From the NCBI GenBank assembly GCA_034437795.1, contig DAOTTI010000189.1, positions 16,479 through 80,478 of the forward strand: DNA of 64,000 nucleotides, given 5' to 3'. The translations under genes and the position numbers were made by a program. Under the pieces are notes generated by a model. It was given only the letters and a program-made list of their open reading frames with translations, did not search any database and was not told where the DNA came from. This document shows, in pieces, positions 186 to 64,000 of the stretch (position 1 is the first letter of the stretch; each line of letters opens with the position of its first letter). The stretch is from Chloroflexota bacterium (GTDB lineage Bacteria > Chloroflexota > UBA11872 > UBA12225).

Positions 186-1559
186 CTATTGCGCAAGGAT
201 CTGGCTCCCGATCTGAACGGCCTTGGCTGTAGCATCCGCCAGGCTGGTCTGGTTACGGAAATAAGCCTCCAGTTCCTTGTTCACCGCGCTCACCAGTTCC
301 GCGTACCGGAAGTTTGCGGAATAGCGCAGCGAACCGGCTCCTTGCGGGAAGGCCTTGACGATCGTTGAGTAAATCGGGTCAAAGGCCAGTAGCTTGGGAT
401 CCTGCCAGACGTCCACACGCCCGCCCGGGCTCCCCGCGCCGCCGAAGACCTGCTCAACCCCGTTCTCCTTGTTGGTGACGAACTTGAGCCACTCCCAGGT
501 GGCCTCCACCTTGTCCAGCTTGGTGATGCCCATGCCCGAGCCGGAGGCCTGGGTGCCCCGCCGGCCCCCCGGTCCCTTCGGGAAGAGAGCGATGCCCAAT
601 TCAAACTTCCCGTTAGCGGGGGAGATTTGGTTCGGGCCGGGGCTCTTCCACTCGGCGACAAAGCCAGGCGTCCAGTTGACGAACCCGAGCTTGCCCTCCA
701 CGAACAGGACGTTCGCTCCCTTGCCGTCGTCGCGGTAGTGCTTATCGATGGTCTGGAACTTTGCCTGGGCGTTGTAGATCCACTCTAGCCCGGCGCGGGC
801 CTCGCTTGAATCGAGCAAGACCTTCCGGCCCGCCTCGTCCAGAAACTCGCCGCCGAACTGGCGTACGTAGAAGACCCCGAACTCGCTGAACCCCCACGGG
901 GAGAAGTAACCCCAGATATCCTGGTCCCGCTTGACGAGCTTCTGCGCAGCAGGGATGAGATCGTCGATGGTCCAGCTGCCATCGTCAGGCACGTTGATCC
1001 CCGCCGCCCGGGTCATCGTCTTGTTGTAGTACAGGACGTTGGTGCCATAGTGGCCGTGTGTCGGCAAGGCGTAAAGCTTGCCGCCGATGCTAAACACGTC
1101 GAGCAGCGCTTTGAAGTACGGTGACTTGTCGAACCTCTGGTCCTTCTTGATCAGATCATCCAGCGCCTTGAAGATGCCCTTGGTCGCCTGCTCGCGACCG
1201 GCGTTCCCGTCAGCGACCACGCCAAACCAGGCGGCATCCGGCAACGTGCCGCCGGCGGCCATGACCGTGAGTTTCTCGCCCACGTGCGGCTGCGCATCGA
1301 TGAAGGTAACCGTGATGTTGGTCTCCGGCGTAAATATGGCCCTGGCCCGCTTGTCATAGAACTGGCTATGCCCCGTGGGGCTCGCCACGCCCGCGCGCGT
1401 GACGACCTCGATGGTTACCGGCCCCCTGGCTCTCGTCGGCTGCGCCGCCGGCGTGCCTGCTGCCGGCCCGCAAGCGGCGATGGCTGCTCCCGATACGCCA
1501 GCCACTCCGGCGGTGAGCGCCCGCCTCCTGGTCATCGTCGCTGCTGCGTCTGTGCTCAT
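186..1559 (-). CDS. ABC transporter substrate-binding protein (family 1, sugar-type). Tat/lipoprotein-like N-terminus MSTDAAATMTRRRALTAGVAGVSGAAIAAC.
   Basis: Six-frame ORF 186..1685. MalE-like SBP features along the whole length. Start placed at the internal ATG (1559) that precedes the RRxAL signal peptide. Confidence 0.85.
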   Translation of the reverse strand: MSTDAAATMTRRRALTAGVAGVSGAAIAACGPAAGTPAAQPTRARGPVTIEVVTRAGVASPTGHSQFYDKRARAIFTPETNITVTFIDAQPHVGEKLTVMAAGGTLPDAAWFGVVADGNAGREQATKGIFKALDDLIKKDQRFDKSPYFKALLDVFSIGGKLYALPTHGHYGTNVLYYNKTMTRAAGINVPDDGSWTIDDLIPAAQKLVKRDQDIWGYFSPWGFSEFGVFYVRQFGGEFLDEAGRKVLLDSSEARAGLEWIYNAQAKFQTIDKHYRDDGKGANVLFVEGKLGFVNWTPGFVAEWKSPGPNQISPANGKFELGIALFPKGPGGRRGTQASGSGMGITKLDKVEATWEWLKFVTNKENGVEQVFGGAGSPGGRVDVWQDPKLLAFDPIYSTIVKAFPQGAGSLRYSANFRYAELVSAVNKELEAYFRNQTSLADATAKAVQIGSQILAQ

Positions 1560-1671
1560 CCCTCGCATCGGTGTTCCTCCCTTTCCCGCGGTTAGCGCCG
1601 ACCATTGCCTCCAGGGCTGCACCATTCCAACGCCACACCACGCTCCATGCGCCCGACCTGGTGCGCCAGCC

Positions 1672-2952
1672 TTACTGTATGGCACCTGTAAAGGAAGCGC
1701 AAGAGCGGGCCGTGCCGGCTACCAGCCGCCCCGACTGGTACACCGCCTGGACGCGGTGCACCGCACGAATGTCCGCGGCCGGATTACCCTGCACCACCAG
1801 CAGGTCGGCCAGCCGGCCGGGGGCAATCGTGCCCACCAGATCCGCCAGGCCCAGCGCCTCGGCCGGAATGGCCGTGACCATGCGCAGCGCGTCCAGCGGG
1901 GGAATGCCGGCCCGCTCGGCCATCAGCGTCAGCAGCCAGGGCAGGTCGGTGCACTGATCGTCCCACTGGCCGTAGATGGCGTCGGTGGAGAAGAAGCTGG
2001 GCACGCCGAGCTCAATGCCGCGCCGGAACCAGCGCCAGCGCTCCTGGAGCGTCTCCAGCTGGCGTCGCTCAGCCGCGGAGAGAGGCTGGTCGAGCGGTTT
2101 TTCGGCCAGGACTCGGCTAGGCTGGCTGGCCATGTTGCAATAGATACCGCGCTCGGCCATGCGCCCCGCCACCCCTTCGTCGAAGGCATGGCGCTCGCCA
2201 CGCTCGTCGAGCCACAGGCAGTGCTCGATCGTATCGACGCCGGCCTCCACGGCGCGGGCGATCCCCTCCGTCCCCAGGCAGTGCGCGGCGACGTGGCGGC
2301 CGAGCCGGTGGGCGTCGTCCACGATGGCGCGCAGCTCCTCGACGGAGAACTGGGCGCGCCCCACGTTGCTGCCGGGGGTCATCCGGCCGCCGGTCGCCAT
2401 CACCTTGATGAAGTCTACGCCCTCCTTGACCAGACGGCGGACCAGGGTGCGGGCCTGCGAGGCCGAATCGACTTCGCCCCCGCAGACCCAGAGGTGGCCG
2501 GTCGTGGTGGTCACCGGCGGGCCGCTGACCAGGATGCGGGGGCCCGGAAGCAGGCCGCCGGCAATGCCGTCTCGCAGGGCCTGCAGGAACGTGCCACGGC
2601 TGCCGCAATCGCGGACGGTGGTGACGCCCGCCGCCAGGAGCAGCCGCGCGTGGCAGGCGGAGCGAACCAGCAGCTGGTGGTCATTGAAGCGGGCGGCGTG
2701 CTCGTAGATCGTCTCGCCGTGGCGGTACATCAGGTGGACGTGGGCGTCGATCAGGCCGGGCAGGACGGCGCAGCCGCGGAACTCCCTGACCTCCGCATCC
2801 GGCGGCACCGGTACCGCATCGTGGGGGCCGGCGGCGACGATACGGCCGTCCTGGATCAGGATCGTGGCCGGCTGGATCGGCGGCGTGCCGGTGCAGGGGA
2901 TGGCCGTATCGGCGCGGATCACGAGGCGGTGGGGAGACGGAAGCATGGCCAC
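1672..2952 (-). CDS. Amidohydrolase-family metal-dependent hydrolase.
   Basis: 426 aa ORF. LPGLIDAHVHL metal-binding motif near the N-terminus, plus HxH/D amidohydrolase signatures. Start is GTG at 2952 or ATG at 2946. Confidence 0.8.
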   Translation of the reverse strand: MAMLPSPHRLVIRADTAIPCTGTPPIQPATILIQDGRIVAAGPHDAVPVPPDAEVREFRGCAVLPGLIDAHVHLMYRHGETIYEHAARFNDHQLLVRSACHARLLLAAGVTTVRDCGSRGTFLQALRDGIAGGLLPGPRILVSGPPVTTTTGHLWVCGGEVDSASQARTLVRRLVKEGVDFIKVMATGGRMTPGSNVGRAQFSVEELRAIVDDAHRLGRHVAAHCLGTEGIARAVEAGVDTIEHCLWLDERGERHAFDEGVAGRMAERGIYCNMASQPSRVLAEKPLDQPLSAAERRQLETLQERWRWFRRGIELGVPSFFSTDAIYGQWDDQCTDLPWLLTLMAERAGIPPLDALRMVTAIPAEALGLADLVGTIAPGRLADLLVVQGNPAADIRAVHRVQAVYQSGRLVAGTARSCASFTGAIQ

Positions 2953-4052: not shown

Positions 4053-4526
4053 TCACTGCCGCAGCGTGGCCACCAGGCGGCGCGGATGAAGGAGCAGCTC
4101 GAGCGCGTCGATGATGGACCGCGCGACGAGGTCGGCGTTCTGTAGCGCCTCCAGGCTGGTCCCTTCCGGGCCGAGCACGGCGATACTGAGGGCCGCCTCC
4201 TTGAGCATCTGGGCGTCGTTGGCGCCGTTGCCAATGGCCACGACCCCCGCCGCCCCCAGCTTACGAACCAGCTCCGCTTTCTGGGGCGCCTCCGGCTGGC
4301 CGTGCCCCAGGCGGACGGCCTCCATGCCGAGCTCCCCATCGATCGCGCTCTGCCGCCCATAGGTGTCGGCCGTGACCATCACCACCTCCAAGCTGCGGGC
4401 CAGCCGGCTGATCCGCTCGCGCACCCCGGGGATGAGGTGGCCGTCCTCAGCGATGGTCCCGTTGACGTCGAGGACCAGACGCTCCAGCGCCAGGGTGCCG
4501 CGGCCGGGGATGTCGATGGAGAGCAT
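4053..4526 (-). CDS. HAD-superfamily hydrolase domain protein (soluble P-type-ATPase-like HAD module).
   Basis: 157 aa. VMVTAD...AIGNGANDAQML motifs typical of the HAD motif III and the ATPase hinge. Confidence 0.6.
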   Translation of the reverse strand: MLSIDIPGRGTLALERLVLDVNGTIAEDGHLIPGVRERISRLARSLEVVMVTADTYGRQSAIDGELGMEAVRLGHGQPEAPQKAELVRKLGAAGVVAIGNGANDAQMLKEAALSIAVLGPEGTSLEALQNADLVARSIIDALELLLHPRRLVATLRQ

Positions 4527-12990: not shown

Positions 12991-12998
12991 AGGCACAC

Positions 12999-37155: not shown

Positions 37156-38196
37156 CTATGCCGTCTCGCGCACGACCAGCTCGTACGGCAGCACGACGCG
37201 CCGCGGCGCGCGCGCGCCTGCTTCACCGGCCGTGAAGCGCTCGAGCAGCAGCTCGGTGGCGGCGTAGCCCATCTCGTACTTCGGCACCGCCACCGTCGTC
37301 AGCGCCGGCGAGGTCACCGCCGCCTCGGGGATGTCATCGTAGCCGATGATCGCCACGTCGGCTGGGACGCGCCAGCCAGCGGCGCGCGCCGCGTGCAGCG
37401 CCCCGATCGCCATCAGGTCGTTGGCGGCGAAGACCGCCGTGGGCGGCGCGTCGAGGGCCAGCAGCTGGCGCATCGCCGCCTGGCCCCCCTCGCGCGTGTA
37501 GTCGCCCTCCACCATCAGCATGGGCTCGGGTGGGATGTCCGCCTCCGCCAGCGCCTGGAGGTAGCCGCTGGCCTTGGCCGGTCGCGCGTCTGAGCCGCCA
37601 CGGGCCTCTCGTCCACCCGAGGCGGACGGCACCGGTGCCCCCGCGATCAGGCCGATCCGCCGGTGGCCAAGCGCGAGTAAGTAGCGCACCGCGTCGTAAC
37701 CGCCATGCGGCGCCACGGTCACCATGTCAAATGCCGGATCATCGACGCGGGACCCGACCAGCACCACGGGGACGGCGGCGCGATGGAGCGCCGCGAGCAG
37801 CAACTCATGAGGGCCGCCGGCGTCGAGGATCACCCCATCGACCCGGCGCTCCTCGAGCGCCGTAAGTAGGCGCACCTCGTTCTCGGGACGCCGGTCGCTA
37901 TTGCAGAGGAAGACCGAGTAGCCGGCCGCGTCGGCGGCATCCTGGACCCCACGCGCCAGCTGCGGATAGTACGGGTTGCAGACATCGGGGATGATCAGGC
38001 CCATGGCGTACGAGCGACGCGTGCGCAGGCTCCGCGCCAGGCCATTGTGCCGGTAGCCGAGGCGCTCGATAGCCTCTTGCACCCGCGCCCGGAGGGCAGG
38101 ACTGACGTAGCGCGTCCCGTTGAGCACGTGGGACACGGTGGAGATGGAGACGCCGGCGGCGCGGCTGACTTCGGTGATCGAGCAGGCGGAAGCCAT
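37156..38196 (-). CDS. LacI-family transcriptional regulator.
   Basis: ATG 38196 (MASACSITEVSRAAGVSISTVSHVLNG HTH) plus a periplasmic-binding-fold effector domain. The upper part of ORF 37156..39405 was rejected. Confidence 0.85.
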   Translation of the reverse strand: MASACSITEVSRAAGVSISTVSHVLNGTRYVSPALRARVQEAIERLGYRHNGLARSLRTRRSYAMGLIIPDVCNPYYPQLARGVQDAADAAGYSVFLCNSDRRPENEVRLLTALEERRVDGVILDAGGPHELLLAALHRAAVPVVLVGSRVDDPAFDMVTVAPHGGYDAVRYLLALGHRRIGLIAGAPVPSASGGREARGGSDARPAKASGYLQALAEADIPPEPMLMVEGDYTREGGQAAMRQLLALDAPPTAVFAANDLMAIGALHAARAAGWRVPADVAIIGYDDIPEAAVTSPALTTVAVPKYEMGYAATELLLERFTAGEAGARAPRRVVLPYELVVRETA

Positions 38197-38234
38197 TGGC
38201 GATGGGGGTGCTGAGCCGACCATCCTACCCAGTG

Positions 38235-38295: not shown

Positions 38296-39699
38296 GTGGG
38301 ATCGACGCCTCGTCTCGGGTCCGCCGCTACCCGCCGGCATCTGCTGCTGGGTGCCGGTGCCGGTGCGGCCACGGCGGCCATGACCGCCTGCGCCATCGGT
38401 CGCAGCGACGCCGGCGACCTCGCGCCCAAGGCCGAGGTCAAGCGGGGCACGACGCTGCAATGGATGTACTGGTCGACGCCGGGCCCGTGGCTGGAGGCCA
38501 ACCAGCAGGAGGCCGCCGAGTTCGAGAAGAAGCACGCCGGCCTCGGCCTCAAGATCGAGCAGCTGAACGTGCCGTCCGGCCAGCCCTTCCTCGACAAGCT
38601 CACCTCGCTCGTCGCCGCGGGCACGCCACCAGACGTGGCCGAGATCATGCCCTGGGACGTTCCGCAGTTCCAGGCGAAGAAGACCTTGCTCAACCTCTCC
38701 CCATACCTCAAACGGGACAAGTACGACCTCTCCGACTTCTTCGCCGCCGGCTTCGATCAGTACCGCTGGACGGCGGACGGCAAGCCGGGCGGCGCCATCG
38801 GGGCCGATCTGTGGGGCGTCCCGCGCGACTTCCCCACACGTGCGCTGGGCTACAACACCGACCTTTTCCAGGCCGCCGGCGTCAAGCTGCCCGCCGCCGG
38901 CTGGAACGACGCCGCCTGGACCCCGCAGGCGTTCCTCGACGCCGCGCTGCGCCTCACCCGGCGCGACGGCAACGGCCCCAATGGCGTCGGCGTCTGGGGC
39001 TGGCATGGCCACGAAGGGCTGCAGGAATGGATGCCGTGGGTCTTCAACCATGGCGGCGACTTCGTCTCGCCCGACGGCCGCGAGAGCCGCTTCGACCATC
39101 CCAAGACCATCGAAGCCTTCCAGTTCCTCGCCGACCTGCAGCACAAGCACAAGGTGGCGCCCACCCCGCAGCAGCGTCCGGCGGAGGGGGCGATGGACCA
39201 GGCCTTCTTCCACGGCCGGCTCGCGATGCACCACTTCGGTCCGGCCCAACTCGGCCGGTATCGCCAGAACACCCAGGGCTTCACCTTTGACGTCGCCGTC
39301 TGGCCGCACACCGTGGTGCCCGGCACTGCCGTCGGCTCGGGGTCCGGCTGGCTGGTGCTCGCCGGCACGCGCGACCCCGAGGCCTCCTGGCTGCTGATCC
39401 AGCACCTGCTCAGCCCCGAGACGCAGCGGACCGATGCCGAGGCCGGCAGCGGCGTGCCGGTGCGCAGGTCCATCATGGAACAGGTCTTCATCCGCCAGCC
39501 CGCACCGCCCAAGAACGTGCGGGTGTTCATGGATAATGCGCAGGTGGCGCGCCTTGTGCCCCAGGTGCCCAACTGGACGCCGATGATGGAGGTGGTCACC
39601 CGCGAGTTGCCCGCGCTCTGGCGGGGCGAGAAGACCGCGCGCGAGGTCTGCAGCGAGATCAAACGCCAGGTCGATCCCATCCTGAAGCAGTCCCTCTAA
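38296..39699 (+). CDS. ABC transporter substrate-binding protein (family 1).
   Basis: 467 aa. Tat/lipoprotein N-terminus (RRHLLLGAGAGAATAAMTAC). Confidence 0.85.
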   Translation: MGSTPRLGSAATRRHLLLGAGAGAATAAMTACAIGRSDAGDLAPKAEVKRGTTLQWMYWSTPGPWLEANQQEAAEFEKKHAGLGLKIEQLNVPSGQPFLDKLTSLVAAGTPPDVAEIMPWDVPQFQAKKTLLNLSPYLKRDKYDLSDFFAAGFDQYRWTADGKPGGAIGADLWGVPRDFPTRALGYNTDLFQAAGVKLPAAGWNDAAWTPQAFLDAALRLTRRDGNGPNGVGVWGWHGHEGLQEWMPWVFNHGGDFVSPDGRESRFDHPKTIEAFQFLADLQHKHKVAPTPQQRPAEGAMDQAFFHGRLAMHHFGPAQLGRYRQNTQGFTFDVAVWPHTVVPGTAVGSGSGWLVLAGTRDPEASWLLIQHLLSPETQRTDAEAGSGVPVRRSIMEQVFIRQPAPPKNVRVFMDNAQVARLVPQVPNWTPMMEVVTRELPALWRGEKTAREVCSEIKRQVDPILKQSL

Positions 39700-39877
39700 A
39701 CCCAGTGGAAAGTGACACGTTCTACGTTCACAGCAGGGAAGCCCGCACGTTCTCCCTCGGCTTCGGTTGAGGCGCTGCCGGGCTCCTGGTTCCTCGTTCC
39801 TCGTTCTTCGTTCGTCGTTGGCAGCTGGCCTGGCGGCGACGACAAACTACTTGACGGCCTGTGTTGAGATCACCGCG

Positions 39878-41332
39878 ATGACCGCACCTCGGCCCAACAT
39901 CCTGGTCCTCATGACGGATACGCTCCGCCCGGATTACGTGCCCGGCTACCGCCGCCCCTCGGACACCGAGGGCCTGCCGGGTACACTCATCTCGCGCCTC
40001 GGACTCGGCGCCCGCACCCCTGTGATGGACGCGTTTGCCGCCGAGTCGGCCGTCTTCGAGCGCGCCTACGCCGCCTCGTTCCCCACCGTGCCTAATCGGA
40101 ACGATCTACACACCGGCCGCTTCACCTTCCCCCACCGCGGCTGGTCCCCCCTGCCCTCTGACTTGCCGTGTCTGGCCGAGGCGATGAATCGCGCCGGCTA
40201 CGCGACCCAGTTCTTTTGTGATACGCCAAACCAGGTCCCCATGGGCCTCCACCGCGGCTTCCAGGGCTGGGAGTGGCACCGCGGCCAGGAGGGCGACCGC
40301 GCACGGAACGACCCGCGCATCAAGGTCGACGATCTTGGCTGCGCCCCCGAGAAGCTGCGTGGCAACGGCGCCGCCTATCGCCAGCATCTGCGCAACCGTG
40401 CCTACTGGCAGGGTGAGGAAGACCACTACGCGCCGCGCACCATCCGCTCCGGCATCACCTGGCTCCAGCAACACTGGGAGGGCGACCGGCAGCGGCCGTT
40501 CTTCTTGTGGCTGGACACATTTGATCCGCACGAGCCGTGGGACGCGCCACCCTACTACACCGAGTGGTACGATCCGGGCTACGACGGGGAGGTGCTGGCT
40601 CACGCCAACTACGGCCGCGCCGACTACATGACCGAGCGTGAGCGCCAGCACGTCAAGGCGCTCTACGCCGCCGAGATCTCGATGGTCGACAAATGGTTCG
40701 GCCGCCTGCTCCAACAGCTCGACGACCTTGGCTACCGTGAGAACACCGCCGTCTTCCACCTCTCCGACCACGGCCACTACTTCGGTGACCACGGCCTCCA
40801 GGGCAAGCCCTTCCGCGAGCTCCTCTGGTTCTACGAGGGGCTGATCCGCATCGCCCTGACCGTCCGCCTCCCCGACGGGCGAGGCGCCGGGCGCCGGGTG
40901 CCGTCGCTGGCCCAGCCGCCCGACGTGACGGCCACCATCCTGGCCCTGGCCCAGGCAGAACTCCCTGGGGTACAGGGGCGCTCGCTGCTGCCGACGATCG
41001 ATGGTGGCGAGGCGCCCCGCGAGCTAGCCTTCACCAGTCGCTACCCCATCCTGGCTGGGGAGGTGACGCCCTGCGCCATCACCACTCTCGAATGGAGCTA
41101 CCAGTACTGGCCGGGGGCACCAGAAAAGGAGCGCCTCTATCACCTGGCCAGCGATCCGGGCCAGGAGCAAGACCTGCGCGCCACGCAGCCGGAGGTGGCC
41201 CGCGAGCTGCGCGCCGCCTACCTGGGGTGGTTGCGCGAGCAGCACGCGGCGATGGCGACATGGCTACAGGCCATCGAGCGCGACCCGTCATACCGGCCGG
41301 ACCCAGGGCAGCTATTCCGCGGCATGCTCTAG
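39878..41332 (+). CDS. Sulfatase-family (alkaline phosphatase superfamily) hydrolase with Thr in place of the formylglycine-forming Cys (TVPNR where CxPSR is expected).
   Basis: NILVLMTDTLRPDY metal-site N-terminus. The signature aligns as SFPTVPNRNDLHTGR against the canonical SPVCSPSRAALLTGR. Confidence 0.75.
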   Translation: MTAPRPNILVLMTDTLRPDYVPGYRRPSDTEGLPGTLISRLGLGARTPVMDAFAAESAVFERAYAASFPTVPNRNDLHTGRFTFPHRGWSPLPSDLPCLAEAMNRAGYATQFFCDTPNQVPMGLHRGFQGWEWHRGQEGDRARNDPRIKVDDLGCAPEKLRGNGAAYRQHLRNRAYWQGEEDHYAPRTIRSGITWLQQHWEGDRQRPFFLWLDTFDPHEPWDAPPYYTEWYDPGYDGEVLAHANYGRADYMTERERQHVKALYAAEISMVDKWFGRLLQQLDDLGYRENTAVFHLSDHGHYFGDHGLQGKPFRELLWFYEGLIRIALTVRLPDGRGAGRRVPSLAQPPDVTATILALAQAELPGVQGRSLLPTIDGGEAPRELAFTSRYPILAGEVTPCAITTLEWSYQYWPGAPEKERLYHLASDPGQEQDLRATQPEVARELRAAYLGWLREQHAAMATWLQAIERDPSYRPDPGQLFRGML

Positions 41333-43664: not shown

Positions 43665-44705
43665 ATGCCCCGTAGTGATGGCGACCGCGTGCCCACCATT
43701 GACCAGTTCACCGGCGCGCTGCTTGGCCTGGCCATCGGCGACGCCCTGGGCCGGCCGACGGAGGGCCAGCGCCATGATGAGATCCGCGCCCAGCCCCGCG
43801 AGGCGCTGCTGACCTTCCGCGCCTATCGCGACGGCCGGCTGGGCCGGATCCTGCCGCCCGGCTCCTGGAGCGACGACACCCAGCAGGCGCTGCTCCTGGC
43901 GGACTCCCTGGTCGCCGGCCGCGGGCTGGACGCCCAGGACTTTGCCGACCGCATGTACGCCCTGTGGCGGTCCGGCGCGGCCCGTGGCTACGGGCGCGTC
44001 TACCAGCAGGCGATGGCGCGGCGCGATGCCGGCCAGCCCTGGGAGCGCGCGGCCGTCGAAGACGACGTGATGAACGGCGCCGCCATGCGCATCGCTCCCC
44101 TGGGGCTCTTCTACTGGTTCGACCCCGCCGCCCTGGCCGACGCCGCCGCCCGCTCCAGCCGCGTCACGCACCGCCACCCGTCCGCCGTCGCCGGCGCCAT
44201 CGGGGTTGCCCAGGCTTTCGCCTATGCCCTGACGCACACCGAACTCGACCCTGACGCCTTCGTCGCTGCGCTGCGCCGGCAGGTAGCGCCCGTCGATGCG
44301 GGGACGGCCGAGCACCTGGCACTGCTGCCCCGTGCGGTCCCCCTGGACCTGGATGACGCCTTCGCGCTACTCAGCCAGGTACCCGAGTTCGCCTCGCCGC
44401 CGGCTGGGGGGCGTGGCCGGGGCATCGGGGGCATGACCATCAGCCTGCTGCTGGGGGCCACTTATCTCTTCCTGCACACGGGTGGCGACTTCCGGCGGGC
44501 GGTGGAGGGGGCGATCCTGCTCGGCGGGGATACCGATGGCACGGCCGCCACCGCGGGGGCCCTGTGCGGCGCCTGGCGCGGGACGGCCACCCTGCCGGCG
44601 GAGCTGGCCGAGACGGTGGAGGAAGCGGAGCGGATCCGCGTCCTGGCGGTCTTGCTCCAGGAGCGATCGCTCTGGGCCGCGCGGTCATCGCCGGCGCTCG
44701 ACTAG
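43665..44705 (+). CDS. ADP-ribosylglycohydrolase-family protein (second copy).
   Basis: GALLGLAIGDALGRPTEG and LLGGDTDGTAATAGALCGA motifs. Confidence 0.8.
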   Translation: MPRSDGDRVPTIDQFTGALLGLAIGDALGRPTEGQRHDEIRAQPREALLTFRAYRDGRLGRILPPGSWSDDTQQALLLADSLVAGRGLDAQDFADRMYALWRSGAARGYGRVYQQAMARRDAGQPWERAAVEDDVMNGAAMRIAPLGLFYWFDPAALADAAARSSRVTHRHPSAVAGAIGVAQAFAYALTHTELDPDAFVAALRRQVAPVDAGTAEHLALLPRAVPLDLDDAFALLSQVPEFASPPAGGRGRGIGGMTISLLLGATYLFLHTGGDFRRAVEGAILLGGDTDGTAATAGALCGAWRGTATLPAELAETVEEAERIRVLAVLLQERSLWAARSSPALD

Positions 44706-44992: not shown

Positions 44993-46987
44993 CTAGACCA
45001 CGCCCGCGACCACCCGCTCCAGCAGGAAGCGGCGCGTGCCGTCGTCAAGACCATAGTCGCGGTAGTTGACGCGCAGGTTATAGAGCACGTGGCGCTCGCG
45101 CCCGCGCTCGAGCTGTGCCCACAATCGCCCAGCCTCGCCTTCTGGCAATGCGCGCGCCACCGGCCGGATGTTGCAGGACGAGCCGGCGGGAACGAAGCCG
45201 CGTGGCGCGCAGAGGTGCTGGTAGAGGCGCATATATTTACCGGTCAGGCGCCAGGGCAGGTCCGACGGCTTGCTGGCCCAGGCAGCCTGCGGCTCCTCGC
45301 CGGCGATCTGGCCTCCCTGGCCAAGGGTAAAGAAGCGCATACCGGCGGCGGTCACCACCTCCGTGCTGAAGACGATCCGTGGCAGCCGGCGCCGCACGGC
45401 GGCGAAGAAACCGGCCTCGTCCCACCGCCAGAGTAGCGAGGCGTCCACGTGCACCGCGTCGATACCGAACTCCTCGACCGTTGGCGCCAGTTGGGCCAGA
45501 TAGGCGTCGTGCCACTGGGGCGAATCGACGTCCATGCCGACAATCGGCGCCGTCCATGCTCCCGTGAATTGCACCGCGTCTGCCACCGCGTACCAGCCGC
45601 CATGCAGGTCGGGTAGCGTACCCTCCTCGCCGCCGGCGTTCGCGGGGCAGCCGAAGCACTCCACCTGAACGACGTTGACCCCCTGCCGGAACAGGAATGG
45701 AAAGGGGAAGCGGTAGCGGTCGTGGTGGCGGAACCACTGCGGGAGCGTAACCAGCGTTCGGCCGTTGAGCGTCAGGCGGATGATCCCATCCCCCACCCAC
45801 GGCAGCCCGCCAAGCGTGAGCACCGCCTGGCACGTCTGCGGCAGGGGCACCGTCTCGAAGCTCCAGCCACCGGCGGCCGGCCGCACGTTGCGGAGGGGCT
45901 CACGCCCCGTGCGGAAGTCGAGCGGGCGTGCGGGAGCGCCGCCCGGCCAGCCGACGTAGGGGCCGCACAGCCGGTCGCGCGGGTGGTGCGGCTGGGCGCG
46001 CACCGCCAGATGAGCCAGCCGGTCGAAGCCGGGCCGGTACGGATCGGCCCCCCAGGCAAGCGTATGCACCATGGCCCGGTAGCCGCCGTCATGCAGCGCG
46101 TCGATCGCCTCACGGAAGCCCGCCCGGCCGCCCAGTTCCGGCGCCGGCACGTAATCCGGATAGCCGCGGTCGTACGGCGCGCACCAGCCGGGCAGGTAGA
46201 ACAGCGCGCCGGGTGGGACCCCCAGCTCCTTGAGCTCCCGCGCCAAGTCTCGGAGGTGAGTGTACGTGTGCGCCACCTCGCCGTGCGGGCGCCATAGATC
46301 GAAGGTGAAGACGATGGGGATCTCCAGCACCCAGGCCGGCACGTCCCCCGCGGCGACCTGCTCTGCCAGCGAGCGCAGGCCGTAGGTCTGGCGTAGCCAG
46401 GCGTGGTGGCTGGCCACGGCCGCATCCATGGTCGGCCAGTATTGCACCGTCAGCGGATCCTCGGCAGCCCACTCGAAGCAGAGCAGGAAGCCGTCTCCCG
46501 TGCGCCGCACGGCCGCCGACGGCCGGCGGGGCGTGACATGCTCCAGCAGCCCGCCGCCGCCACGATCCGTCCCCACAGCCTCCAGCGGCGCTCGCGCAGC
46601 GATCTCCAGCCAGCCATCCGGGCCCAGATCCACGAGTACGAGTGGATAGGCCAGCCAGAGCAGGCCGAAGAAGTTGAGGCCCGCACGGTAGCTCTCTCCC
46701 GCCGGCATGTCACGGTCGATGCGCGTGCCGGCGTTCCAGGAGCACGGCAGGTGGATCACCGCCCGCTCGGGGAGCGGCACGTCCAGGGTGGCGCGGTCAC
46801 GCCCGCGCGGGTCATCGGGCGGCGCCTCGCGCGGCGGCAGTCGCAGGGTGAGGCCGTGCGCCCCTTCCTGCCATGCCGGCGCCTGCGAGGCGCCGCCCCG
46901 CCGCACCCGTGCCCCACGGACGACCTCCCAGATCGCTGCGGACCATGAGCGAACCCCCCGTCGCTCTCCCTTGCCGGCCTCACTCAC
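44993..46987 (-). CDS. Conserved ~660 aa protein of unknown function, possibly a TIM-barrel glycoside-hydrolase-like fold. Paralog of 61883..63765.
   Basis: Collinear similarity with the 61883 gene along the whole length (GGGG box, VFTFD.W.P.GEVAH.YTHLRDLAR.LK.LGVPPG, YLPGW, HTLAWGADP, FGVDAVHVDA.LWRWDE.GFFAA.RRRLP). 27 nt downstream of the sulfatase gene on the same strand. Confidence 0.7.
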   Translation of the reverse strand: MSEAGKGERRGVRSWSAAIWEVVRGARVRRGGASQAPAWQEGAHGLTLRLPPREAPPDDPRGRDRATLDVPLPERAVIHLPCSWNAGTRIDRDMPAGESYRAGLNFFGLLWLAYPLVLVDLGPDGWLEIAARAPLEAVGTDRGGGGLLEHVTPRRPSAAVRRTGDGFLLCFEWAAEDPLTVQYWPTMDAAVASHHAWLRQTYGLRSLAEQVAAGDVPAWVLEIPIVFTFDLWRPHGEVAHTYTHLRDLARELKELGVPPGALFYLPGWCAPYDRGYPDYVPAPELGGRAGFREAIDALHDGGYRAMVHTLAWGADPYRPGFDRLAHLAVRAQPHHPRDRLCGPYVGWPGGAPARPLDFRTGREPLRNVRPAAGGWSFETVPLPQTCQAVLTLGGLPWVGDGIIRLTLNGRTLVTLPQWFRHHDRYRFPFPFLFRQGVNVVQVECFGCPANAGGEEGTLPDLHGGWYAVADAVQFTGAWTAPIVGMDVDSPQWHDAYLAQLAPTVEEFGIDAVHVDASLLWRWDEAGFFAAVRRRLPRIVFSTEVVTAAGMRFFTLGQGGQIAGEEPQAAWASKPSDLPWRLTGKYMRLYQHLCAPRGFVPAGSSCNIRPVARALPEGEAGRLWAQLERGRERHVLYNLRVNYRDYGLDDGTRRFLLERVVAGVV

Positions 46988-47013: not shown

Positions 47014-48657
47014 TCACTCGTGGCCCTCGTTCCTCGCCAGTCGCTCCTCGCTCCGCGCTCCTTCTCCTCGCCCCGGCTGCTTGGTCACGAAGGGATGGTT
47101 GGGCGTTTGCAGGTGCTCCCGTAGCCACGGCCGCTTCTCGGCGGGCAGGCCCCCGCGCGGCCCGATCAGGTAGCGGGCGGCCCCCCACATCAGCTGCGTG
47201 TATGGATCATAGTGCTCAAACATTAACGCCCACAGCGCGTCGCGCAGGTCCTGCGCCACCTCGGCGTACGCCGGCTCATCGATCACGTTGCGCACCTCGC
47301 CCGGATCGGCCTCTAGGTCGTACAGTTCATCCCAGTCGAAGCCGTTGAAGACGTACTTGTAGCGCTGGCCAATGGCGATGCGCTGGGTGTAGAGCAGCTC
47401 GCAGCCGTAGTAGCAGTTGAGCCGGTAGGCCGGCCAGTCCGCTTCGGCCGCCTCGGGGCGCATCATCAGGGGCAGCAGGTCGCGACCGTCGGCGTGGGGC
47501 AGCGCCGGCGCCCCCGCCACGGCGGTGAAGGTATGCGCCAGGTCCTGTAGCTGGACCAGCGCGTGCGTTCGGCTCCGCGCCGGGATCACGCCCGGCCAGC
47601 GCGCCACCAGCGGGATGCGGATCGTCTCCTCGTAGGGCGTCCAGCCCTTGACCATACAGCGGTGGGCGCCCACGTTGTCCCCGTGGTCGGCGGTGAAGAC
47701 GGTCAGGGTGTTGTTCACCTGGCCCACCTCCCTGAGCGCATCAAGGACGATCCCCACCGCCGCATCCACCTGCTGGCAGTAGGCGTAGAAGTGGCGCAGC
47801 ACCTCCCGCACGTCTTCGGGCGACAGTTCCTGCCACAGGCTGGCCTCGCGCGCCAGGAGCCGCGGCTTGTTCTGAAAGGTTTCCTCCAGGTAGTTCCTGG
47901 GGATTTCCACATCCTCCGGCCGGTACTGCGCCAGGAACGTCAGCAGGGGCTTATAGGGGTCGTGGGGCTCGGGGAAGTGCACCTCAATGTGCCAGGGGCG
48001 GCCGGACGCGGCGTACTCGCGGATCAGCTGCGCCGCCGTGGTGGCAATGTGGTACTCCTGCGTCGCCTCGAACTCCCCGTCGATCTCCAGCCACAGGGTG
48101 TGCGTGTCGCCCCCGGGCCAGGTGACCGACCGGCGCCGGACCACCTCGTAGCGCCGGCGGGTGTCGCGAATGGTCGGGCCATAGCCGTCCACCCGGTTGC
48201 GCCGCGCCGCCTCCGGGGTGAGCGTAACCTGGACCGGCGCGCGGTACTCGTGGTAGCCGAAGTCCAGCGGGCCCCGCAGGCGGCTGGCGTGCCACTTGCC
48301 CACATAGCCCAGGCGGTACCCCACCTGGCGCAGGCGCTGAGAGAAGGTCTCGACGTCCGGCGCCAGATCGGGATTGAGCGACATCGGTACGTGCACCTGG
48401 TGGTAGACGCCGTTGTGCCAGGGGTAGGCCCCGGTGAGCAGGGCGGCGCGGGCGGGGCAGCAGATCGGCACCGGCGTGGAGGCGCGCTCACAGCAGAGGC
48501 CCTCCGCTACCAGCGCGTGCACGTGAGGCGTGCGGCACACCGACCGACCGGCAATCGTGTCCCAACGCATGTGGTCGCCGGTGATCAGCAGGATGTTCGG
48601 TGGCCCCGGTGGGGCAGGCGGGCCGTTCAGGCCCGACCGGTCAGCGTGGGTAGTCAT
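47014..48657 (-). CDS. Sulfatase (canonical Cys-type; CCPAR FGly motif).
   Basis: NILLITGDHMRWD N-terminus, and PICCPARAALLTG signature. Confidence 0.85.
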   Translation of the reverse strand: MTTHADRSGLNGPPAPPGPPNILLITGDHMRWDTIAGRSVCRTPHVHALVAEGLCCERASTPVPICCPARAALLTGAYPWHNGVYHQVHVPMSLNPDLAPDVETFSQRLRQVGYRLGYVGKWHASRLRGPLDFGYHEYRAPVQVTLTPEAARRNRVDGYGPTIRDTRRRYEVVRRRSVTWPGGDTHTLWLEIDGEFEATQEYHIATTAAQLIREYAASGRPWHIEVHFPEPHDPYKPLLTFLAQYRPEDVEIPRNYLEETFQNKPRLLAREASLWQELSPEDVREVLRHFYAYCQQVDAAVGIVLDALREVGQVNNTLTVFTADHGDNVGAHRCMVKGWTPYEETIRIPLVARWPGVIPARSRTHALVQLQDLAHTFTAVAGAPALPHADGRDLLPLMMRPEAAEADWPAYRLNCYYGCELLYTQRIAIGQRYKYVFNGFDWDELYDLEADPGEVRNVIDEPAYAEVAQDLRDALWALMFEHYDPYTQLMWGAARYLIGPRGGLPAEKRPWLREHLQTPNHPFVTKQPGRGEGARSEERLARNEGHE

Positions 48658-49855: not shown

Positions 49856-51208
49856 ATGGGACAGCCAGTCGTACAGCGCACCAGGCGGGCGCTGCTTGGC
49901 GAGGGCGCTCTCCTTCTCGGGGCGGCCCTGGTCGCCTGCGTCCCGGGCCAGGCCGGCCCGGCCAGGAAGGAGCCGGAAGGGGCCGCCACCATCAACATCC
50001 TGTACGGGGGCGGCGGCCAGGAGGTGCAGGATCTCTACGACCGTACCGCCTTCGCCACCTTCAAGCGCCGCTTCCCCGGCTCCACCATCAATCTGGACAG
50101 CAGCGGCAACCCGCTCTCCAAGGTGCTCACCCTGCACGCCGCCGGCAGCGCGCCGGACATCATCCAGGGTGGCGATACCTGGACGATCGACGTGGCGCGC
50201 CTCGGTCTCGGCATCCCCCTCGATCCGTACGTCAAGGGCTGGGATGCGCGCGCCGACTTCGTCAAGTCGTCCTGGGACTCGGGGCAGGAGGCCGGCAAGC
50301 AGTGGGGCGTGCCCCTCTTCGTTACGGCGCGTATCGTCTATCTCCGTAAGGGCGTGCTGGCCGAAGTCGGCGTCGCCAGGACCCCGGAGACCTGGGAGGA
50401 TCTGGTGGATACGGCCAGGCGCTCCACCAAGGTGGACAACGACCGCGTGGTACGTCAGGGGCTCACGCCCCCAGGCGGGGGCGACGCCTGGTGGTGGTGG
50501 TTCTGGCTCCTGCAAACGACCGGCGCCACGCTGTTCAAGGACGGCAAGGCCGGCTTCACCGCGGGAGAAGGGGAGACCACCTTGCAATTCATGAAGGACC
50601 TGCAGTCGGCGATCCTGCCCCGAGGCGCAGAGCCGTTACCCGGCGATAGCGCGGCCAACTTCACCAGCGGTACCATCGCCCACGCCTGGCTACACCTCGC
50701 CCCCTATCAGAACATCCAGAGGTCGAACCCCAAGGATTACCAGGAGATGGTGATCAGCACGCCCCAGGTGCCGGGGAACGTCGCCTACCGGCTGCCGGGC
50801 GGGCGCAAGGTCCCGCCGCTGACCTTCGTGGACAACGCGCTGCTGTTCATTAGCGCCCAGTCCAGGTATCCGGACCACGCCTGGGAATTGACCAAGCTCC
50901 TGCTGGAGCCGGAGACGCTGCTGGAATTCGAGCGCCTGCGCGGGCGCCTGCCGCCCCGCCGGTCCATCTTCGGCCAGGGCTGGATGAAGGATGAGAAGAT
51001 CCAGCAGATCGCCAGGGTCTATGAGAAGACCGGCCGCGCGCGCTTCAACCCGCCCAACTTCGACGGCGTGACCCGTATCGTCAACGAGGTCGTCTGGAGT
51101 GTGGTGCGAGATCAGAAGGTCTCGGTGCGCGACGGGGTGCTGGCCATGGCGCGCGACCTGGAGCAGCTCGCGCGTGAGGTCGCTTATACCGGCACGACCC
51201 GATGGTGA
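49856..51208 (+). CDS. ABC transporter substrate-binding protein (family 1).
   Basis: ATG 49856, preceded by GGGAGG. MalE-like motifs. Confidence 0.85.
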   Translation: MGQPVVQRTRRALLGEGALLLGAALVACVPGQAGPARKEPEGAATINILYGGGGQEVQDLYDRTAFATFKRRFPGSTINLDSSGNPLSKVLTLHAAGSAPDIIQGGDTWTIDVARLGLGIPLDPYVKGWDARADFVKSSWDSGQEAGKQWGVPLFVTARIVYLRKGVLAEVGVARTPETWEDLVDTARRSTKVDNDRVVRQGLTPPGGGDAWWWWFWLLQTTGATLFKDGKAGFTAGEGETTLQFMKDLQSAILPRGAEPLPGDSAANFTSGTIAHAWLHLAPYQNIQRSNPKDYQEMVISTPQVPGNVAYRLPGGRKVPPLTFVDNALLFISAQSRYPDHAWELTKLLLEPETLLEFERLRGRLPPRRSIFGQGWMKDEKIQQIARVYEKTGRARFNPPNFDGVTRIVNEVVWSVVRDQKVSVRDGVLAMARDLEQLAREVAYTGTTRW

Positions 51209-55788: not shown

Positions 55789-55805
55789 GATGATATACCG
55801 TAGAC
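55789..55805. promoter_or_regulatory. Palindromic motif copy 4 (gatgatataccgtagac), 70 nt upstream of the SBP gene.
   Basis: Direct reading. Confidence 0.4.
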
Positions 55806-55873
55806 GACAGGCAACGATGCCATGGCGGCCAGGTGGCCGCGTCACCACAGCAAGCGTGAGGAGGGGAAGTGCC

Positions 55874-57241
55874 ATGACCCGTACCCCGACCACCAGGCGC
55901 GCCCTGATCAGCGGCGCCGTACTCCTGAGTAGCGGGCTGGCCGCCGCCTGTGGCCAGTTCGGCCAGCGGGAAGTGACCCCGCCGACCGCCCGGCGGACAC
56001 CTACCCCGCTCCTGGCCTGGGTGGGGCCGCCGGTGGACACGATCGGCCCCGGCGCAGACTTCTGGAAGACCACGGAGGCCCTGCTCAGGACCGAGCACCC
56101 CGAGATCCTGCTGGATCGTAACCGGCCGGCGATCCCCGAAAACCAGACCTTCGACGACATGCTGATCGCCAACTTTGCCGCCGGCAGTGGCCCCGACGTC
56201 TGGGAGGGGGACGTCACGCCCTGGCGCCAGGAAGTGAAGGTCAAGCTGGGCATCCCTCTCGCCCTGGAGAGCTACTACGCGCGCCTGCCTAACCTCAAGA
56301 GGATCTTCGGCTGGATGAAGGAGCAGGCCCGCATCCAGGGCAAGCTCTACGGCGTGCCCCACGAGGTGGAGTTCATTGCCGTCTTCTACAACAAGCGCGT
56401 GTTCGCCGCGGCCAACGTCAAGCCGGGCAGGACCTGGGAGGAGTTCCTCAAGACGGGCGAGACCCTCAAGGCCCAAGGTATCCAACCGCTCAACCAGCGG
56501 GCAGCGCCGAACATGGGGCACCTCTGGAGCCTGACCCTGGCAGCCATCGCCGGCCGGCAAGGGGTCGACGACATTGTGGCTGGCAAGGCGCGGTGGGACG
56601 GCACCGCCCCGGTGCTGGCCGGCGAAACGCTGGTCGATCTGCAACGGCGGGGGATCCTGCCCCGCTATGCAAGCATCGTGGGCAACCAGCCGTTCGCCGA
56701 GTTCCCGATGGGCGATTCGTTCTTCGAGGGCAAGGTCGCCCAGTGGGTTACCGGCACCTGGAGCATCGCCGGTTTCGAGAAGCAGAAAGTGGACAGAGGG
56801 GGGCTCTTCGACTACGATTTTTATGCCTTGCCCTCGCCCAACAATAGCCGCAAGCCCGAACTCGCGGGCAGCGCTGGCGGTGGCTTCTCGATCTGGGCCA
56901 AGAGTAAGGTCCCCGACGTGGCAGCCACGTTCATCGACTGGCTCTACAGCCCGCCGGTGCAGCGGGCCTGGATCGAGATCCTGTTCCAGGTGCCCCCGGT
57001 CCCCTTCAAGATTGAGGACTACAAGCTCTCTGACGGTGAACGGCGGGCGCTGGCACTGATCCACGACTACGAGAAGCTGGGGTTCGGCTGGAACGTGGAC
57101 GTGATCATGCCGGTGGAGATGCACCGCGAGTTCTGGCCCCTGCTGAGCGAGGTAATGCTCGGGAAGAAGACGCCGCGGGAGATGATGACGCGCCTCCAGC
57201 AGCTCTGGGAGACGGAGCAGGCCAAGCTCAAGGCGCGCTAA
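55874..57241 (+). CDS. ABC transporter substrate-binding protein (family 1), lipoprotein signal.
   Basis: ATG 55874 (MTRTPTTRRALISGAVLLSSGLAAAC). Confidence 0.85.
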   Translation: MTRTPTTRRALISGAVLLSSGLAAACGQFGQREVTPPTARRTPTPLLAWVGPPVDTIGPGADFWKTTEALLRTEHPEILLDRNRPAIPENQTFDDMLIANFAAGSGPDVWEGDVTPWRQEVKVKLGIPLALESYYARLPNLKRIFGWMKEQARIQGKLYGVPHEVEFIAVFYNKRVFAAANVKPGRTWEEFLKTGETLKAQGIQPLNQRAAPNMGHLWSLTLAAIAGRQGVDDIVAGKARWDGTAPVLAGETLVDLQRRGILPRYASIVGNQPFAEFPMGDSFFEGKVAQWVTGTWSIAGFEKQKVDRGGLFDYDFYALPSPNNSRKPELAGSAGGGFSIWAKSKVPDVAATFIDWLYSPPVQRAWIEILFQVPPVPFKIEDYKLSDGERRALALIHDYEKLGFGWNVDVIMPVEMHREFWPLLSEVMLGKKTPREMMTRLQQLWETEQAKLKAR

Positions 57242-61882: not shown

Positions 61883-63765
61883 TCAGCTCACCACCTGCTC
61901 CAGTAGAAAGTCGCGCGTGCCGGGATCAAGGCCGTAATCACGGTAATTGACACGGAGATTACGCAGGACGTGGTGCCGGCGTGACCAGGCCAGCCGGCGC
62001 CGCGTGGCCTCCACTTCCTCCGTCGAGAGCCTGCTGGGAACAGGATCGATGTTGCAGACTGAGCCGACCGGGACGAAGCCTCGCGGCGCGCACAGGTGCT
62101 GGTAGAAATGCTGGTACTGACCTGTGATCTGCCACGGGAGGTCGGAAGGTTCAGGCTGCCACGCCTCGTCCTCCAGCGGCGGACGTGTCTGGCTAAGCAA
62201 GAAGAAAGCTAGCCCCGCGGTGGTGGCCACCTCCGTACCGAAGACGGTCGGCGGCGGTAGCCGTCGGCGGAGCGCGGCAAAGAAACCGTCCTCGTCCCAG
62301 CGCCAGAGCGCAGTTGCGTCGACGTGCACGGCATCGACGCCGAATTCCTGTACCGTGGGGATGAGGTGCTCCATGAAGGCCGCGCGCCAGAGGGGAGCAT
62401 CGGGGTCCATGCCCACGGCAGGCACCGTCCACGTCGGCCCAGGATGGTCGTACGCCTGGTGGATACGGAACCAGGCGCCGCGCAGGTCCGGCGGTGGGCC
62501 GCCCGCGCCGCCGGCGTTCCGCGGCCAGCCGAAGCAGGCCAGCTCCACTGTGTTCACACCCTGCAGGAAGACGAAGGTGAACGGGAAGGTATAGGCGTGG
62601 TGGCGCAGAAACCAGCCCGCCGGGCCGGTGAAGGTGCGGCCGTTGATCGTCACCTGCACCGTGCCGTGCCCGGCGTCGCCCAACCCGCCGAGGGTGAAGA
62701 CGGCCTCACAGCGCTGGGGCAGCGGCGCCGTGTCGAACGCCCAGCCCCGTGGTGTAGGGCGCACGGCGCTGGCCGGCACGCGCCCGCTGTCGTACTCCAG
62801 GGCCGTGCGCGGGCCGCCGCCGGGCCAGCCGACGTAGGGGCCGCGCAGGGGATCGTCCGGCGGCGCCGCGGGGATCGACTGGCCCGGCGGCGGGCTCTGC
62901 GCCTGGTGGGGATGCACGATCGGTGGCGGCGCGGTGCTGGGGTCGGTCCCCAGCCAGTTGCGCACGGCGGCCGGCGCCAGCCGCTCGAAGTCCGGGCGGG
63001 AGGGATCGGCGCCCCAGGCCAGCGTATGGATCATGATGCGATAGCCGCCTTCGTGGACCGCGGCCACCGCCTCCCGGAAGGCCGCACGCCCACCCAGCTC
63101 CGGCGCCGTCCGGTAGTACGGGTAGCCACCGTCGTAGGGGCCCGACCACCCGGGAAGGTAGAACACCACGCCGGGCGGGACGCCGAGCGCCTTGAGGTCG
63201 CGCGCGAGGTCGCGCAGGTGAGTGTAGGCGTGCGCCACCTCACCGTTGGGCCACCACATGTCGAACGTAAAGACTACCGGTATCCGTGCCGCCCACGCCG
63301 GCACTTCGCCAGTGGCGATGCGCTCGGCCAGCGGCCGGACACCGTACGCCTGGCGCAACCAGGCGACGTGGTCGGCGACCACCGTCTCCGCGGACCTGAC
63401 GGCGCGGCTGGCTGGCCGCTCATCCGTCCCTGATTCGAACGTCAGGCGAAAGCCGTCGCGGGTGCGCTCGACGCTCGCCACTGCCCACCGGCGCCGTACG
63501 GTAGTCGGGAACCCACCACCACCTTTGTCTGTCCCGCTCAGCTCATGCGTGGACCGGGCAGCGACTTCCAGGCAGTCGTCCTGCCCGTCCGCGTGCTCAA
63601 CCAGCACGAAGGGGAAGGTGAGCGGCGCCGGACGGCCATCCGGTCCAGGGCGCGGATAACGCGCGCCGACCGGCATCGAGCGATCCAGCACGACGCCATA
63701 CGTCCAGTGCACCGGCAGGTGGATGCGGGCGCGGTCCGGCAAGGAAAGCTGGACGGCAGACTGCA
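61883..63765 (-). CDS. Conserved ~630 aa protein of unknown function (paralog of 44993..46987).
   Basis: Collinear motifs with 44993..46987. ATG at 63765 (MQSAVQLSLPD), 11 nt after the stop of the upstream SBP gene. Confidence 0.7.
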
Positions 63766-63776
63766 TCGGACCACTC

Positions 63777-64000
63777 GTTACCGTCGGCTGAGGAGCTGAT
63801 TTTGCTCCCGTGCGATCTCGGCTGCCGCGACCCTGGCTGTTTGCTCGTTGCGCCATAGAGGCTGCAGGCCGCGGTCAAACGCCGCCTTGATGTTGCCCAG
63901 CTCAGGGTGAAGGGACGAATCCTGCGAGTACTCCAGCGCCGCCAGGCCGGCCCGGGTAATCCGCTCGGCGAACTCACTGGCCAGCGATTTGCGCGCCGGC
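63777..64000 (-). CDS. ABC transporter substrate-binding protein, C-terminal fragment (the gene continues beyond the window).
   Basis: Minus-strand translation ...ELGNIKAAFDRGLQPLWRNEQTARVAAAEIAREQNQLLSRR* resembles an SBP C-terminus. Confidence 0.5.

Follow-up and report, generated by a model that had tools for sequence, protein, structure and literature searches.

The window analyzed here, a stretch of 64,000 nucleotides from a Chloroflexota bacterium (NCBI GenBank assembly GCA_034437795.1, contig DAOTTI010000189.1, positions 16,479 to 80,478 of the forward strand), contains six complete genes and one partial gene for family-1 (SBP_bac_1) solute-binding proteins (SBPs), and no gene for a permease or an ATPase of an ATP-binding cassette (ABC) transporter was detected in it. 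The same orphan arrangement of SBP genes next to catabolic genes recurs in related bacteria. It is fairly probable that the region is made up of cassettes, each composed of a substrate-specific SBP and the corresponding enzymes, which make common use of one or a few translocators of the MalF/MalG/MsiK type encoded in trans.

SBP genes and the search for permeases

The G+C content of the window is 69%, at which raw lists of open reading frames (ORFs) are crowded with shadow frames. Coding frames were chosen via the G+C content of the codon positions, and the approximately 60 ORFs obtained were run against Pfam. Membership in the SBP families was decided by the gathering cut-off (26 bits) of SBP_bac_1/SBP_bac_8, which was clearly exceeded by the six full-length SBPs (72 to 99 bits). 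All of these revealed a signal for the twin-arginine translocation (Tat) pathway combined with a lipobox.

186..1559, minus strand: SBP1, Tat-lipoprotein family-1 solute-binding protein (Pfam SBP_bac_1 1.8e-22; signal TRRRALTAGVAGVSGAAIAAC); start at 1535 in the JGI gene call; 100% identical to P0052, encoded on a JGI contig of 38 kb
32703..34112, plus strand: SBP2, Tat-lipoprotein family-1 solute-binding protein (Pfam SBP_bac_1 8.7e-28; signal PTRRTLLRLFGVTAPLQAAFTAC)
38296..39699, plus strand: SBP3, Tat-lipoprotein family-1 solute-binding protein (Pfam 4.9e-28); 100% identical to P0001
42036..43394, plus strand: SBP4, Tat-lipoprotein family-1 solute-binding protein (Pfam 9.4e-26; signal PTRRAALATLMGAGTAGAATAMSAC)
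49856..51208, plus strand: SBP5, Tat-lipoprotein family-1 solute-binding protein (Pfam 1.5e-26; signal RTRRALLGEGALLLGAALVAC)
55874..57241, plus strand: SBP6, Tat-lipoprotein family-1 solute-binding protein (Pfam 9.9e-20); identical to P0051, which is present on contigs of 38.7, 78 and 85 kb
63778..64000, minus strand: SBP7, the C-terminal 73 codons and the stop codon of a gene that leaves the window (minus-strand translation)

The initial annotation had also counted seven SBP genes. Its last gene, given as 63777 to the end, cannot be a plus-strand gene since stop codons occur throughout; the SBP is read on the minus strand, where only the 73 C-terminal residues fall within the window. SBP1 and SBP7 are both minus-strand genes, which corrects the earlier record.

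The flanks of the window were studied by means of exact-sequence matches to contigs of 38 to 85 kb from JGI, ENA and NCBI, which stem from the same organism (loci L010 and L011/L012). Gene order was identical across these independent assemblies. On the twin contigs L011/L012, SBP7 is complete (430 amino acids, SBP_bac_1), and it follows a ninth SBP gene as well as a gene for a GH36 alpha-galactosidase. To the left of the window, an eighth SBP gene was found 380 nt after SBP1, followed by genes for ApbA, a dehydrogenase, PurH and glycogen synthase (L010). Together with the flanks, the region comprises nine SBP genes within approximately 77 kb.

For the detection of permeases and ATPases, three methods were used. 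Among the approximately 60 ORFs of the window, there was no Pfam match to BPD_transp_1, other permease families or ABC_tran. A six-frame scan of the window for stop-free segments with at least three hydrophobic stretches, or with a Walker A or LSGGQ motif, revealed only MgtC and one antisense artefact by hydropathy, and neither of the two ATPase motifs. Finally, phmmer searches of the window with two CUT1 permeases did not yield any match. The positive control was a Brachybacterium locus (L006), in which an SBP homolog with 28% identity belongs to a classical SBP-permease-permease operon; both of its permeases were recovered by the hydropathy scan and by phmmer. The initial statement that the 64 kb lack ABC permease and ATPase genes was thereby confirmed, and a search for permease ORFs that might have been overlooked did not uncover any. 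Permease genes are likewise absent from the flanks on the twin contigs. None of the nine SBP genes in the window and its flanks adjoins two genes of the MalF/MalG type. In a survey of the Parageobacillus lipoproteome, only two of 45 SBPs were orphans, and none of the five that belong to PF01547. Because of this low orphan rate, it is not credible that nine orphans out of nine arose by chance.

Properties of the SBPs and distribution of the arrangement

The assumption that the SBPs possess Tat or lipoprotein signals also held. Export signals were scored by motif only (RR and lipobox Cys). Both elements exist in all six full-length SBPs of the window and in 34 of 38 full-length SBP frames across the loci, a count which includes duplicate contigs and the control L006 and in which SBP2 is a false miss. 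Judged by these motifs, the SBPs are exported, membrane-anchored lipoproteins. Lipid-anchored binding proteins are expected of monoderm bacteria. The closest PDB sequences, determined for SBP1 and SBP3, are those of MalE3 (6dtq, 5.7e-19) for SBP1 and of AbnE (6rjy, 1.1e-33) for SBP3, which is also related to TMBP (1eu8, 1.3e-21). In NCBIfam, neither an SBP nor an unidentified protein of the window reached a curated cut-off, and there was no equivalog. A comparison of SBP3 with its orthologs from four other contigs of metagenome-assembled genomes (MAGs) gave dN/dS values of approximately 0.15 to 0.19, and the RR motif is kept, indicating that the SBP genes are functional and under purifying selection. 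The score of SBP3 against its best paralog in the window (120 bits) is equalled by that against AbnE of Geobacillus. Since SBP3 is as close to this protein as to any SBP of the window, the SBPs appear by their sequences to be ancient, distinct subfamilies and not the result of a recent duplication burst.

A search for an upstream motif common to the nine SBP genes revealed nothing beyond GC-rich k-mers and Shine-Dalgarno sequences. Hence, nothing points to a common regulon, and regulation looks independent for each cassette.

Relatives were sampled as SBP-centred loci. A search of MAG contigs with SBP3 gave three loci, a metagenome search with SBP1 one locus of 2.5 kb. All named relatives are uncultured Chloroflexota from soil-type metagenomes. 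The SBP3 orthologs (82, 60 and 51% identity) adjoin sulfatase-family genes and are not accompanied by permease genes. In L004, L005, L007, L013, L014, L015 and L016, two to five SBP genes each were found beside UxuA, MR_MLE, GFO, TIM, SDR and LysR genes. The L007 paralog, 31% identical and obtained from the same ENA sample, has flanking genes for SDR, amidohydrolase and ROK proteins, and a second orphan SBP gene is located 8 kb away. Relatives of SBP1 (57, 42 and 41% identity) are present in L013 (a 490 kb contig), L014 and L015, where three to five SBP genes per locus neighbour UxuA, MR_MLE, LysR, glycoside hydrolase and phosphodiesterase genes. In L016 (JGI 3300054965), three SBP genes are interleaved with GFO and TIM-barrel genes.

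Altogether, approximately 35 SBP genes were counted in about 269 kb of non-redundant sequence of the lineage, and this sequence contains no ABC permease or ATPase gene. Not one of these SBP genes has the two adjacent permease genes seen in the control locus. If 10% of the SBPs of the lineage were encoded in classical operons, the probability of finding none among 35 would be approximately 2%. The orphan-SBP arrangement is lineage-wide. The only membrane proteins encoded beside SBPs are MgtC, cytochrome bd, CrcB, AI-2E and a fragment of a Na/H antiporter, none of which is recurrent. A search of the literature for orphan or expanded SBPs in Chloroflexi/Chloroflexota did not yield any paper. The finding represents a systematic, lineage-wide form of the known orphan-SBP phenomenon, in the CUT1 family and in a phylum for which no report was found.

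In L002, L014 and L015 (ENA ERZ250394xx/ERZ250395xx), several SBP genes and other genes are split into two or three adjacent fragments, which could be due to frameshift errors of the assembly or represent true pseudogenes. Each split gene was counted once.

Enzymes and regulators next to the SBP genes

According to the initial annotation, every neighbour of an SBP gene codes for an enzyme. This applies to most of them, the exception being a regulator of the LacI family.

1672-2952, minus strand: amidohydrolase (Pfam), upstream of SBP1 in the same orientation, appears cytoplasmic
3186-3989, minus strand: SDR (Pfam), upstream of SBP1 in the same orientation, appears cytoplasmic
4053-4526, minus strand: HAD hydrolase (Pfam), upstream of SBP1 in the same orientation, appears cytoplasmic
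30297..32612, minus strand: protein of approximately 770 amino acids without Pfam match, divergent from SBP2, cytoplasmic
35648..37090, minus strand: ADP-ribosylglycohydrolase-family protein (Pfam PF03747 3.6e-51), convergent with SBP2
37156..38223 (start approximate), minus strand: LacI-family regulator (Pfam LacI and Peripla_BP_1/3), divergent from SBP3
39767..41332, plus strand: sulfatase-family hydrolase (Pfam Sulfatase 4.1e-26), downstream of SBP3, cytoplasmic
43665..44705, plus strand: ADP-ribosylglycohydrolase-family protein (Pfam 1.4e-65), downstream of SBP4, no signal peptide, cytoplasmic
44993..46987, minus strand: DUF6259 paralog a (Pfam DUF6259 1.8e-8), directly downstream of the sulfatase gene 47014..48657
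47014..48657, minus strand: canonical Cys-type sulfatase (C-C-P-A-R; Pfam Sulfatase 8.4e-37 and SGSH_C), cytoplasmic
51466-52683, plus strand: enolase-superfamily MR_MLE dehydratase (Pfam), between SBP5 and SBP6
52954-54258, plus strand: GFO_IDH_MocA oxidoreductase (Pfam), between SBP5 and SBP6
54442-55398, plus strand: xylose-isomerase-like TIM barrel (Pfam), between SBP5 and SBP6
61883..63766, minus strand: DUF6259 paralog b (AF2 model, pLDDT 81.2), directly downstream of SBP7

A regulator gene adjoins an SBP gene of the window only at SBP3; none is located next to SBP1, 2, 4, 5, 6 or 7, and LacI or LysR genes occur near some of the relatives. The intergenic region between the LacI gene and SBP3 harbors a perfect 10-bp palindrome, TTTGCGCAAA, within GAAACCTTTGCGCAAACCTTTCGC (~38210-38240), approximately 60 nt upstream of the SBP3 start. 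Judging from its sequence, this palindrome is a candidate LacI operator.

In type-I sulfatases, a cysteine or serine is converted to formylglycine. The sulfatase-family protein encoded downstream of SBP3 has a threonine at this position (T-V-P-N-R), and the sequence P-T-V-P-N-R-N-D-L-H-T-G is kept in all three orthologs encoded beside SBP3 orthologs (L001 10179-11672, L003 2345-3814, L004 7264-8814). Judged by this motif, the protein may be a hydrolase with a threonine nucleophile, e.g. a phosphoesterase, and not a sulfatase.

Two protein families were examined by structure prediction. The protein of approximately 770 amino acids, which has no match in Pfam or NCBIfam and 742 representative homologs, gave an AF2 model with a pLDDT of 84.7. 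The best Foldseek matches of the model were PL8 hyaluronate lyase, dermatan-sulfate epimerase, PL17 Alg17c and heparinase III (E 5e-10 to 3e-6, TM ~0.4-0.5). It is thus predicted to adopt an (alpha/alpha)-toroid plus beta-sandwich fold resembling lyases of the families PL8, PL17 and PL12 and dermatan-sulfate epimerase. The paralogs of about 650 amino acids that the initial annotation had left as unknown turned out to be two DUF6259 proteins (53% identity to each other), which by the model are probably GH129-like glycosidases. A PDB sequence search with paralog a did not give any match. The model of paralog b, built from an alignment of 14 homologs, most closely resembled the 3,6-anhydro-D-galactosidase ZgGH129 of Zobellia and NagBb of Bifidobacterium (E ~1e-10, TM 0.42-0.46), followed by GH31 and GH36 enzymes. 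The DUF6259 family is therefore regarded as putative GH129-like glycosidases, paralog a by extension from the model of paralog b. With these moderate TM scores, the predicted assignments of DUF6259 and of the 770-residue protein hold for the fold class and not for the family.

The MR_MLE, GFO_IDH_MocA and TIM-barrel genes were also called on the twin contig L011, and their products appear cytoplasmic. SBP genes interleaved with GFO_IDH_MocA and TIM-barrel (AP_endonuc_2) genes were observed in the window (49856-57241) as well as in L016 (8649-18007). The combination of these two enzymes is typical of pathways for the oxidative (3-keto) cleavage of glycosides, which hints at a class of ligands for SBP5 and SBP6.

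No signal peptides were found at the N-termini of the enzymes encoded next to SBPs, and the AF2 models of DUF6259 paralog b and the 770-residue protein fold from the first residues. What emerges is a set of pathways located in the cytoplasm and acting on sugar acids and on oligosaccharides that are possibly sulfated or uronic. Since the SBP-adjacent enzymes, among them folds active on oligosaccharides, are cytoplasmic, their substrates must be imported.

Several features lie apart from the cassettes or at their borders. Transposase remnants were detected at 27491-28303 (DDE_5 fragment) and 28540-29133 (weak HTH_32), and the section from 29.1 to 30.3 kb has no Pfam match. The block from 28 to 32 kb has the highest G+C content of the window (73%). 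Possibly these are the remains of an insertion element, positioned immediately upstream of the lyase-like gene and SBP2. Rfam and tRNA scans of the window gave no matches. Two DUF5069 genes (15833-16294 and 21659-22150) flank a small fatty-acid/polyketide-like cluster that is unrelated to the SBPs and is followed by a gene for a PhyH dioxygenase. Between the two DUF5069 genes lie the following genes.

16502-17398, minus strand: IU-nucleoside hydrolase
17542-18321: SDR
18807-20084: beta-ketoacyl synthase
20179-21093: methyltransferase
21206-21658: MaoC dehydratase

Proposed shared translocator, alternative explanations and known orphan systems

According to the explanation we favour, the specificity layer of ABC import would be separated from the translocation layer in this carbohydrate-catabolic region of an uncultured soil bacterium. 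Each cassette provides a substrate-specific, Tat-exported and lipid-anchored SBP of the CUT1 type. Cytoplasmic enzymes for the breakdown of what is imported are encoded next to it, namely sulfatases, glycosidases (GH129-like and GH36), the lyase-like protein and, for sugar acids, dehydratases, oxidoreductases and isomerases. In some cases a regulator of its own is added, such as LacI for SBP3. The two membrane subunits of the MalF/MalG type and an MsiK-like ATPase would be encoded elsewhere and would not be duplicated for each cassette, with many SBPs docking on the same translocator. That permeases are shared and encoded elsewhere had been one of two proposals of the initial annotation. It is the best-supported reading because the SBPs are exported CUT1-type proteins under purifying selection, because the cytoplasmic enzymes need import of their substrates and because the layout matches that of CaiX and CbcWV. 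Both the delivery of ligands by the SBPs to an ABC translocator and the existence of the shared translocator are what we infer from these data.

The system just mentioned, that of Pseudomonas, is a precedent proven by experiment. According to the account of Thomas 2010 ("Homes for the orphans") given in PMC8938411, and to PMC5806209, the orphan SBPs CaiX and BetX from catabolic operons use the core translocator CbcWV. The carnitine catabolic operon has the layout caiX-cdhCAB-hocS, with cdhR in divergent orientation (PMC8938411, PMC5806209). As in the window, an SBP gene without permease and ATPase genes heads a catabolic cluster or sits inside it, CbcWV being encoded elsewhere, and the LacI gene divergent from SBP3 and its hydrolase gene corresponds to the cdhR/caiX layout. 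On the other hand, the Cbc system comprises three SBPs for quaternary amines in a proteobacterium, and its core operon is known, whereas the Chloroflexota region contains at least nine family-1 SBPs of the sugar type, apparently as a rule of the lineage.

In scale, the closest analogue by comparison is the expansion of orphans of the TTT (TctC/Bug) family. Bordetella possesses 79 to 181 such SBP genes and at most four membrane components, Rhodoplanes 434 genes (PMC5994714). In both cases, the SBPs far outnumber the linked membrane components (locally ~35:0 in the ~269 kb of SBP-centred loci), their genes are scattered or in tandem beside metabolic and regulatory genes, and a shared translocator is debated against a sensing role (PMC5994714). 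The TTT systems, however, are secondary carriers with SBPs of the TctC fold, whose paralogs are closely related and result from recent lineage-specific expansion. By contrast, the SBPs of the window belong to the ABC type (SBP_bac_1), and their paralogs, 23 to 29% identical, lack a signature of recent duplication. With classical CUT1 importers (MalEFGK2, and actinobacterial SBP-TMD-TMD operons, TMD denoting transmembrane domain, with a shared MsiK), the SBPs have in common the family, the fold homology and the lipoprotein anchor typical of monoderms. What separates them is the position of two permease genes directly after the SBP gene, which is realized in L006 and never in the loci of this lineage. 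Sharing of the ATPase is routine among sugar ABC importers (PMC7658222). Family-1 sugar SBPs without adjacent membrane components have also been reported for Bifidobacterium, where orphan LT-SBP paralogs of some strains were proposed to use the components of other loci (PMC8110962). Such cases are sporadic, limited to particular strains and found next to operons that are complete in other respects, while the arrangement in Chloroflexota is systematic and lineage-wide.

Several points weigh against a shared translocator. No translocator gene of the lineage was found in any of the locus sequences examined, i.e. the window, its flanks and the relatives, and the latter are SBP-centred loci and not a random sample of the genomes, which makes them silent on translocators encoded elsewhere. 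The SBP paralogs of the window are mutually only 23 to 29% identical and as distant from one another as from SBPs of other phyla; so many divergent SBPs on one or a few pairs of transmembrane domains would require unusually promiscuous docking. In addition, a promoter and terminator scan from 37.5 to 57.4 kb gave counts equal to the shuffled background. Intergenic gaps of 70 to 480 nt and the lack of detectable promoters or terminators do not show the SBP and enzyme genes to be transcribed together.

A more far-reaching possibility, which we consider rather doubtful, is that the lineage does without one-to-one sugar ABC systems altogether. Dozens to hundreds of ancient, highly divergent SBPs would then rely on one or a few universally promiscuous translocators or on a non-ABC partner, or would act in surface capture or as sensors. 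If this were true, a whole lineage could dispense with the textbook pairing of each CUT1 SBP with MalF/MalG subunits of its own.

It is unlikely that the orphan SBPs are in general sensors, in which case the ligand-loaded protein would bind to a histidine kinase or chemoreceptor and switch on the adjacent catabolic genes, as with ChvE-VirA and BctC. A role of this kind is one of the published explanations for TTT orphans (PMC5994714), and some of the relatives fit to it: the SBP3 ortholog of L001 has a HisKA_7TM kinase gene immediately upstream, a HisKA kinase gene is divergent from an SBP gene in L016, and genes for a dCache kinase and a response regulator lie approximately 2 kb upstream in L007. 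A signalling role is thus possible for a subset of the SBPs. However, such adjacency is sporadic and not conserved among the SBP3 orthologs, and neither the window nor its flanks contain a kinase or chemoreceptor gene. Moreover, SBP3 is neighboured by a regulator of the LacI type, a cytoplasmic protein that responds to a ligand inside the cell, and the cytoplasmic enzymes would still require an importer.

Quite improbable is a lineage without CUT1 membrane components, in which the SBPs either cooperate with a non-ABC membrane partner or capture glycans at the surface in the absence of a translocator. The lack of a permease gene in approximately 269 kb around some 35 SBP genes would be explained in this way, and the divergence of the paralogs makes a common docking surface hard to imagine. 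Yet no membrane-protein gene recurs beside the SBP genes at any locus, and SBP-centred loci are uninformative on the rest of the genome. Family-1 SBPs are not known to serve non-ABC carriers.

The second proposal of the initial annotation, that the SBP-fold proteins partner the adjacent enzymes in ligand binding or sensing, has to be disfavoured. The regular adjacency of SBP and enzyme genes would agree with physical ligand-binding partners, but the SBPs carry Tat and lipobox signals and the enzymes none, which places them in different compartments, and the enzymes belong to many unrelated folds. With the SBPs on the outer side of the membrane and the enzymes in the cytoplasm, this explanation is topologically implausible and very improbable. 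Finally, it is hardly conceivable that nearby permease genes were missed as frameshifted, diverged or lost by an assembly artefact: the high G+C content does yield many spurious ORFs and some relatives have frameshifted SBP fragments, but three independent methods were negative, yet recovered the control permeases of L006, on which ground such an artefact is rejected, and independent JGI, ENA and NCBI assemblies agree in gene order.

Operon context is the usual basis for the annotation and substrate prediction of sugar ABC importers, and in the lineage studied here it fails for an entire SBP repertoire. Transporter counts from MAGs of soil Chloroflexota have to be read differently in view of the finding, as SBP counts would overestimate the number of complete transporters. 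If SBPs of approximately 25% identity indeed feed one or a few shared translocators, the lineage would offer a natural model for the recognition of binding proteins by MalF/MalG-type subunits, and it would show how competing SBPs divide uptake capacity. The cassettes also tie DUF6259 (GH129-like), lyase-like 770-residue and Thr-type sulfatase-family enzymes to specific SBPs, whose ligands could reveal the substrates of these adjoining uncharacterised enzyme families.

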